From an uncultured Clostridia bacterium (GTDB taxonomy: Bacteria > Bacillota > Clostridia > TANB77 > CAG-508), in NCBI GenBank assembly GCA_944387565.1, contig CALXFJ010000002.1:9354-73353 (forward strand): DNA of 64,000 nucleotides. The letters are read 5' to 3'. The notes beneath the pieces were generated by a model. That model was not told the origin of the DNA. It was given only the letters and a program-made list of their open reading frames with translations, and searched no databases. Made by a program: the position numbers and the translations under genes. This document shows positions 37,651 to 38,444 of this stretch, in pieces (within the stretch, counting starts at the first letter, position 1; each line of letters opens with the position of its first letter).

Positions 37651-38199
37651 ATGGATATTATAAAATCTATTGAACATGAGCAATTAAAAAATAAAATACC
37701 TGAACTAAAAGTTGGTAATACAGTTAGAGTACACGTAAGAATCAAAGAAGGAAATAAAGAAAGAATCCAAGTATTTGAAGGAATTATTATAAAAGTACAA
37801 GGTGGAGGAGTGAACAAATCATTCACAGTAAGAAAGATTTCTTATGGTGTAGGTGTTGAAAAAACATTCTTAGTTCATTCACCATTAGTTGAAAAAGTAG
37901 AACTTGTTAGAGTTGGTAAAGCTAGAAGAGCAAGATTATTCTACTTAAGAGACAGAGTTGGTAAAGCAGCTAAGACTAAAGAACAAGTTGGTGCTAGAAT
38001 TGAAAATAAAGAAATTACTATTAAAGAAGATTTAGTAGAAGAAGCACCAGTAGAATCAGCTCCAGAAGAAGCACCAAGTATTGAAACTGAAAATCCAACA
38101 GTTCAAGAAACTGTAGATACTGTAACAGAAGAAACAGTTGAAACAGTTAAAGAAGAGCCTGTAAAAGAAGAAGCTAAAAAAGAAGAAAAAGCAGAATAA
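37651..38199 (+). CDS. rplS: 50S ribosomal protein L19 with roughly 65-aa acidic C-terminal extension
   Basis: The L19 core runs to ...[10 protein letters not shown]. It is followed by the low-complexity tail [53 protein letters not shown]. Confidence 0.85.
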
Positions 38200-38444
38200 T
38201 AATAAATGAGACAAATTGGGGACGGACCTTATTTGTCTCATTTATTATTTGTTTAAAAAAATAATGTAAAATAAAAAATTTTTCTATTAAGATATTGATA
38301 TAAAAGGATTTAAAGAAAAAGCGAACAAATATTTTAATTTTTTTATGAAAAACTATTGACAAAATAAAAAACAAAATATAAAATATAGACAACAAAAGCG
38401 AACAACATTTTGTAAAACAGAAGTTTAATAAGGAGTGGTATGAA

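Follow-up and report, generated by a model that had tools for sequence, protein, structure and literature searches.

Repetitive extragenic palindromic (REP) sequences of the canonical type are GC-rich hairpins with loops of 2-5 nt; their tetranucleotide GT[AG]G lies 0-2 nt upstream of the stem foot, and they flank the gene of a REP-associated tyrosine transposase, or RAYT (PMC6006769, PMC2817692). A related arrangement was described by Di Nocera et al. 2013, who reported RAYT-like genes flanked by terminal inverted repeats, many of them with GGGGWSAS, and named these units TIRtrons or TIRYTs; some of the repeats form moderately abundant families in dimers or clusters, and the published examples are from Stenotrophomonas maltophilia, Acidobacteria and Accumulibacter, with no mention of Clostridia or Firmicutes (PMC3733652). 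TIRYTs have been equated with TnpA-Y1 subclass 2.1 of Quentin et al., who found no REP-like sequences or secondary structures near subclass 2.1 genes (PMC6006769); this subclass, also called RAYT Group 1, has a C-terminal helix-turn-helix (HTH) and occurs in Clostridia (PMC5581495, PMC6006769). Here we describe a family of hairpins with a common G-rich loop motif in a 64-kb stretch of DNA (the window, G+C 26.7%) from an uncultured Clostridia bacterium. The hairpins form a structured, non-random repeat family rather than a novel regulatory RNA class. We consider it likely that they are dispersed REP-like copies, and that the system they belong to is that of a Y1 HUH tyrosine transposase of the RAYT/TIRYT type in low-GC gut Clostridia, because the same hairpins flank a Y1 transposase gene in relatives (upstream in 40 of 41 loci, downstream in 33 of 41).

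The motif TTGGGGACG has four exact matches in the window, at 7308(+), 9429(+), 38216(+) and 59191(-), where dinucleotide-preserving shuffles lead one to expect 0.01 (none of 100 shuffles reached four), and the window holds no further copy at one mismatch. As a preliminary description of this DNA had claimed, all four copies lie within hairpin loops, and the stems it gave were recovered both by direct reading and by script. Its list of loci was correct but short by one half copy, so that the window holds four hairpins and a half unit, all intergenic:

38198-38249, plus strand: REP-like hairpin, the best copy, with a 19-bp perfect stem AATAATAAATGAGACAAAT / ATTTGTCTCATTTATTATT and loop TGGGGACGGACCTT
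9417-9457, plus strand: REP-like hairpin with arms AAAATGAGA / TCTCATTTT and loop ATTTTGGGGACGGAGCTTTTTTG, its inner stem decayed
7300-7331, plus strand: REP-like hairpin with arms ATGTCGC / GCGACAT and loop GTTGGGGACGTTTCTCAT
59169-59198, minus strand: REP-like hairpin with arms TGTCCA / TGGACA and loop TTTGGGGACGTTTCTTTT
59144-59165, minus strand: half unit made up of the arm TGTCCA and, after it, the motif variant TTTAGGGACACATCCT; a 3' arm is lacking

The hairpins at 9417-9457 and 38198-38249 align without a gap across both arms and are two copies of one sub-family, while 7300-7331 and 59169-59198 have TTGGGGACGTTTCT in common on arms that differ but stay complementary. The shared sub-strings reported earlier (TTGGGGACGTTTC for the latter two loci, TTGGGGACGGA plus the AAATGAGA arm for the former) are correct. 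The pattern that had been drawn from them, a conserved loop on a variable but complementary stem, holds across the whole family, as the other loci and especially the relatives show, but the 9417/38198 pair cannot serve as independent compensatory evidence because the two copies align gap-free over both arms. The 9417-9457 copy is located between two minus-strand genes, for a purine nucleoside phosphorylase and an HTH protein, with a terminator-like call at 9432-9452. Hairpin 7300-7331 begins inside the stop codon of an S41 peptidase gene, 24 nt 5' of pgsA, and has no T tract. The one at 59169-59198 runs antisense to era, stopping 2 nt short of the GGAGG ribosome-binding site of that gene; the half unit directly adjoins it, and together they form a composite of the order arm-M1-arm'-spacer-arm-M2, of which a near-identical copy exists in a relative (L016:309-360; L-numbers are our labels for loci and contigs from relatives and metagenomes).

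The connection to a transposase was found at locus L056, where a gene for a 225-aa protein (13476-14153) lies between two hairpins, TGTCAA-TGGGGACGGAGAAGC-TTGACA upstream (13338-13364, plus strand; motif part TGGGGACGGAG) and the same TGTCAA/TTGACA hairpin, inverted, downstream (14157-14183, minus strand). The protein passes the NCBIfam model NF047646, 'REP-associated tyrosine transposase', with 81.3 bits against a cutoff of 80, and matches Pfam PF01797 (Y1_Tnp, E = 1.3e-12). In the PDB it matches a single sequence, E. coli TnpA-REP 4ER8, in an alignment that covers the HUH and YIYxNPVK motifs; among 19 homologues neither the HUH histidines (H60, H62) nor the tyrosine motif Y---NP (YIYDNPVKAG) varies. 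This transposase family, which comprises 1321 proteins at E <= 1e-10, often encoded on long contigs as single-copy genes are, also conserves about 80 additional C-terminal residues. A metagenome scan with the L056 protein (tblastn) gave 58 homologue loci, of which 41 with enough flank were counted. A motif hairpin in plus orientation stands 99-208 nt upstream of the gene in 40 of them, typically 109-146 nt from the start codon, and one in minus orientation 0-79 nt after the stop codon in 33, typically at 0-6 nt; a minus-orientation hairpin upstream of the gene was seen in none of the 41. The stems follow the transposase lineage (TGTCAA, GTGCCA, TGCCAAAA, TGCCATT, TGGGA) and GGGACG is constant. 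Views of 20 kb around two homologues contain further dispersed copies of the flanking family, and L177 also has the second loop sub-family of the window (GGGACGTTTCC plus GGGGACACATC). This association supports the earlier suggestion of a REP/MITE-like (miniature inverted-repeat transposable element) repeat acting at the DNA level.

A separate observation at these loci (L107-L161) is a conserved box, AAATTTCGACAAA, some 60-100 nt upstream of the start codon, which lies between the upstream hairpin and a promoter-like TATAAT in nearly all RAYT homologues and is a candidate -35 region or regulatory site.

The preliminary description had proposed looking for the motif in related genomes, and motif hairpins are indeed present there. 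Relatives were identified by rplS among species-representative genomes; they are uncultured Clostridia metagenome-assembled genomes of the 'Clostridium sp. CAG:508 / CAG:354' type, and the data set consists of 1.14 Mb of low-GC, rplS-anchored loci from uncultured gut Clostridia. As a non-circular test we compared the share of motif occurrences enclosed by perfect stems with that of control words in two independent data sets. In the relatives, perfect stems of 6 bp or more hold 53 of 99 GGGACG occurrences in their loops, and 13 control words reach 3-9%; the RAYT loci have 72 of 95 distinct occurrences inside stem-loops, the control words 0-8%. The total frequency of GGGAC matches its compositional expectation. 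From 52 distinct hairpins with 29 inner arms we derived the consensus arm - T(44/52) R GGGAC G(46/52) K W N C T T - arm'. Stems differ from genome to genome and the loop motif is kept, with one stem dominating in each genome (TGTCAA in L034, four copies, and in L056; TAAACT in L032, eight copies; GGGATT in L061 and L062; CAGCCA in L067). Pairs and arrays in alternating orientation are frequent, and perfect palindromes with two inverted motifs occur in L043, L064 and L027. The distribution among close relatives is patchy. A literature search for the motif string returned primers and unrelated matches only.

Hairpins of the family are intergenic, and 21 of 56 start no more than 15 nt from a stop codon; in this setting 16 motifs read in the sense of the upstream gene and 5 in antisense. 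A second recurrent setting is the composite already met before era in the window, arm-M1-arm'-spacer-arm-M2 with M2 reading GGGACAC.TCC, placed antisense between promoter and ribosome-binding site. A composite block of about 55 nt with GGGATT arms occupies this place before rpsP in L012, L021, L027 and L081; it is missing from the rpsP leader of the window, of L016 and L023 and of most other relatives. Upstream of rpsP many species of the clade also keep a promoter-like block, GTTATTAAATTTTTAAATTTATATA (window 35800-35905); the rpsP composite sits between this block and the AGGAGG ribosome-binding site and begins AGGAG/AGGAC, mimicking a duplication of that site.

Of the described systems, the TIRtron/TIRYT branch is the one with which the Clostridial family shares a single RAYT-like Y1 HUH gene between inverted repeats at fixed distances, dispersed copies in dimers or clusters, and a protein longer than canonical RAYTs, whose C-terminal region may be HTH-like. 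The repeats of both are G-rich: the variants GGGGACAC (in the half unit 59144-59165 and in L016, L021, L027 and L067) and GGGGACAG (in L012, L016 and L022) match GGGGWSAS fully, and the main form GGGGACG[G/T] does so at 6-7 of 8 positions. In contrast to the lack of REP-like structures reported for subclass 2.1, the Clostridial repeat is unmistakably a hairpin that holds the motif in its loop and whose stems are lineage-specific. Judged by repeats and protein architecture, the family probably fits the TIRYT / subclass 2.1 branch.

With the canonical REP, BIME and REPIN elements and their RAYT (4ER8; PMC2817692; PMC3116915) it has in common that the palindromes are short, extragenic and multi-copy, that most of them stand directly behind a stop codon where the adjacent genes are co-directional or convergent, that they form alternating-orientation clusters of lineage-specific sequence and stand as inverted flanks of a single-copy Y1 transposase gene, and that they are targets of insertion sequences (IS) and plausible terminators or mRNA stabilisers. 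It differs in its conserved element, which is a loop of 11-14 nt where the canonical loop has 2-5 nt, in AT-rich rather than GC-rich stems, in a host that belongs to a low-GC Clostridial lineage and not to the Proteobacteria, and in a modest copy density of about 4 per 64 kb. The ends of IS200/IS605 elements and their miniature derivatives, the palindrome-associated transposable elements (PATEs), are likewise single-stranded DNA hairpins handled by a Y1 HUH enzyme, and the L056 protein matches Y1_Tnp; that protein, however, scores 22 bits against the IS200 equivalog model (cutoff 55), its gene is single-copy on long contigs and not a collapsed multicopy IS, and at RAYT there is neither a TnpB partner nor a distinct left and right end. 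The rolling-circle origins of plasmids and of CRESS-DNA viruses carry a conserved nonanucleotide in a hairpin loop that is nicked by an HUH Rep protein. With a loop motif on a lineage-variable stem, read by an enzyme of the HUH superfamily, they offer the nearest analogy for how loop recognition could work. It is a resemblance only; these are single replicon origins and not dispersed repeats, and Rep belongs to another HUH branch.

A mechanism for the Clostridial hairpins can be sketched by homology with the biochemistry of E. coli TnpA-REP and IS200/IS605 TnpA, as summarised in PMC6006769. The unit is a stem of 6-19 bp, specific to a lineage or a locus, which exposes a conserved single-stranded loop T-R-GGGACG-K-W-N-C-T-T. 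By analogy with those enzymes, the hairpin would form on single-stranded DNA such as the lagging-strand template, and the transposase would recognise it together with the G-rich loop motif, the loop playing the role that in canonical REPs falls to the GTAG 'guide' at the stem foot; the strand would then be cut and rejoined through the HUH motif and the catalytic tyrosine, and units could thereby be copied, moved, inverted or clustered. Copies would persist chiefly just 3' of stop codons, where they are usable as terminators or as 3'-end stabilising stem-loops, and co-option by the host is plausible. Once the system is lost, the loop would decay from GC to AT while the stem survives. The plus strand of the window has a positive GC skew throughout, which fits three of the four motifs on a presumed lagging-strand template, though four are too few to weigh.

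Several points weigh against reading the hairpins as RAYT/TIRYT-type repeats. The RAYT gene is absent from the 64-kb window and from 20 same-species contigs, and the three different stems among the four copies of the window may mean that these are old relics, or the gene may be elsewhere in the genome. The GT[AG]G foot (GTAG/GTGG) of canonical REPs is absent 5' of the 5' arm in the hairpin position matrix, where the conserved bases are in the loop, and what suggests recognition of this loop by the enzyme is only its conservation. Motif position 7 is G in most copies and A in the published GGGGWSAS. The C-terminal HTH matches of the transposase (residues ~190-225) are below Pfam thresholds (HTH_11 0.016, HTH_23 0.04, Sigma70_r4 0.007). 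Finally, the 16:5 sense bias near stop codons is not predicted for a purely DNA-level selfish element and hints at selection on the transcript.

Hairpin 38198-38249 starts 0 nt after the rplS stop codon, where relatives carry ordinary terminators; its RNA fold reaches -27.6 kcal/mol (z = -9.5), its tail ATTTATTATT is T-rich, and a terminator-like call at 38219-38239 overlaps it. Setting the family apart from plain terminators, as had been proposed, was thus too strong for this copy, which by its sequence features is probably a repeat element and also the terminator of the rpsP-rimM-trmD-rplS operon. Measured by the features of intrinsic terminators, the hairpin loops of 11-23 nt are atypical, the 38198-38249 stem is very stable, and 7300-7331 lacks a T tract. 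The rplS protein is unchanged on many human-gut metagenome contigs and the hairpin identical (10 same-species contigs). At least six relatives besides the window have a GGGAC-loop hairpin with an unrelated stem in the position after rplS, the orthologous one in L023 having the loop TAGGGACAGACCTT; in L081 and L018 the motif or its complement is inside the stem there, and most other relatives have ordinary short-loop terminators. L029 keeps the stem of the window (AAATGAGACAAAT / ATTTGTCTCATTT) but has the loop GAAGATGTATCTT, with five differences from the GGGGACGGACCTT of the window, every one of them G/C-to-A/T, and no motif hairpin is present in 20 kb of L029. Its loop looks like the product of relaxed constraint after loss of its reader.

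Two further features were noted at this gene. Near the 3' end of rplS in L021 (5561-5593), a hairpin with the arms of the window (ATGAGACA/TGTCTCAT) carries the motif of its loop in reverse, on the other strand, which would fit a flip of the loop inside a conserved palindromic stem. Ribosomal protein L19 itself (window 37651-38199) has 182 aa, including an acidic, E/T/V/K-rich C-terminal extension of about 65 residues, and its matches in many relatives extend to query residues 146-182, that is, into this extension.

Differences between strains or samples are visible at several hairpins. Some 40-85 nt past the RAYT stop codon, the 45-nt spacer of an inverted hairpin pair is found in both orientations across samples of one species; the two states, seen in L117 vs L118 (also L119-L126), are exact reverse complements: a REPIN-like doublet is polymorphic here for an internal inversion. 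The same-species contig L097 (1-52) has upstream sequence unrelated to that of the window (7250-7300), the divergence falling exactly at the 5' stem foot of hairpin 7300-7331, between A and TGTCGCG, and a divergent gene starts at this breakpoint; either a rearrangement at the repeat or a join made in assembly could account for it. In the same-species contig L094 the loop of 9417-9457 is split, directly after TTTTGGGGACGGAGC (window 9441/9442), by an IS1182-family element (L094:2367-3893) whose transposase matches PF05598, PF01609 and PF13751 and whose terminal repeats are GAGGCTGCTGAAAAAGTAG. The same IS family is inserted at the apex of ordinary terminator palindromes without the motif in L101/L103, with an 8-bp duplication GAGAAATC, and in L106, and from these insertion sites appears to target hairpin tips in general. 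As a side observation, one strain (L010:15375-17383) has an IS21-type insertion (rve, Mu-transposase C and IstB) upstream of an asparaginyl/aspartyl-tRNA synthetase-like gene, which is not in the window or in nine other strains.

The family might instead act primarily at the RNA level, as 3' untranslated region or terminator stem-loops whose loop is bound by a protein or an RNA, its association with a transposase being secondary. This is unlikely in our view, even though it would account for the placement of so many hairpins close behind stop codons and mostly in sense, for the rplS copy in a terminator position and for a loop kept over deep divergence. It could even give the antisense class before the ribosome-binding site (of era, and of rpsP in four relatives) a function, as CGUCCCC could pair with the Shine-Dalgarno sequence; yet over the whole family both orientations occur, pairs and clusters alternate in orientation, some palindromes are perfect and hold the motif twice, inverted, a T tract is missing from several copies, and the hairpins are patchy among close relatives, decayed in the loop in L029 and placed at the flanks of the RAYT gene in nearly every locus counted. 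The regulatory RNA module that the preliminary description had also offered finds no support either, given the two orientations and the patchy distribution, and in the Rfam search it called for (Rfam 15) no covariance model matched at any of the loci, whether with gathering thresholds or with E <= 10.

Very unlikely is an origin as miniature elements or footprints of DDE-type IS, with the motif as a remnant of a terminal inverted repeat (TIR), or as preferred targets of the IS1182 family. The interrupted loop in L094 and the TIR-TIR-like perfect palindromes of L064 and L043 (TTGGGGACGGAGGATTTTTGC...GCAAAAATCCTCCGTCCCCAA) are what one would cite for it, but the ends of the IS are unrelated to the motif, it enters motif-less hairpin apexes as well (L101/L103, with a GAGAATC-type duplication, and L106), the hairpins show no target-site duplications around them, and the enzyme that is consistently beside the motif is the Y1 transposase and not a DDE transposase. 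We give almost no credence to a double-stranded DNA signal for a host protein, be it an uptake sequence, a polar motif of the KOPS/Chi kind or the operator of a dimeric regulator (GGGAC-N-GTCCC). A partly palindromic loop (GGGAC G GTCC) would suit an operator, except that the second half-site is degenerate or missing in many copies (GGGACGGAGA) and that nearly every motif is unpaired within a stem-loop. The cross-species conservation of a G-rich 8-mer in 'dialects', with inverted pairs sometimes in terminator positions, recalls the DNA uptake sequence (DUS) of Neisseria; here, however, there is about one copy per 16 kb and none in coding sequence, GGGAC is as frequent as composition predicts, and strand polarity is not strong.

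Some narrower candidates were also considered. DUS and the uptake signal sequence (USS) of Haemophilus occur about once per 1-2 kb and also inside genes, and such an identity was rejected on the low density and exclusively intergenic position just given. The IS1182-family element was rejected as the source of the motif on account of its terminal repeats and its insertion in motif-less hairpins. A translational signal (readthrough, SECIS-like or small open reading frame) was rejected as well, since the frames of the motif relative to the preceding stop codon are spread 9/5/5 and the stops are TAA/TAG. We set aside tRNA-like, anti-Shine-Dalgarno, CsrA-type, KOPS/Chi and DUS functions in view of the lack of strong polarity, low density, intergenic restriction and occurrence in both orientations. 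Integron attC-like cassettes were considered for L064, where the palindromes have between them dprA, an HD-protein gene and the genes of a toxin-antitoxin pair; inspection by eye of the reported contexts showed no R'/R'' boxes, and the L064 stretch examined contains no integrase.

The RAYT/TIRYT reading explains a conspicuous repeated motif of a very AT-rich uncultured gut lineage without a new RNA class, and it would give domesticated tyrosine transposases of a widespread branch whose function is opaque a well-defined DNA substrate that is easy to search for, arm - TRGGGACGKWNCTT - arm'. Tentatively, the large RAYT Group 1 / subclass 2.1 (TIRYT) may have here its first clear partner of the hairpin-repeat (REP-like) kind, with the guide in the loop instead of at the foot. 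If true, it would imply a different geometry of hairpin recognition by HUH enzymes, in which the stem is free to drift or be swapped while the system persists, and the repeats would be open to co-option as terminators in small-genome gut Clostridia. For annotation, it calls for caution, as many apparent terminators and 5'-leader hairpins in this lineage are repeats that vary between close relatives and attract insertion sequences.

Other features of the window include a T-box leader at 28345-28570 (Rfam RF00230, 102 bits), upstream of a 136-aa open reading frame (28637-29047) and of pheS (29081-30100); its 5' end is overlapped by a minus-strand open reading frame of 98 aa (28131-28427). Two tandem tRNA-Gly(TCC) genes, spaced 27 nt apart, are located at 12884-13058.

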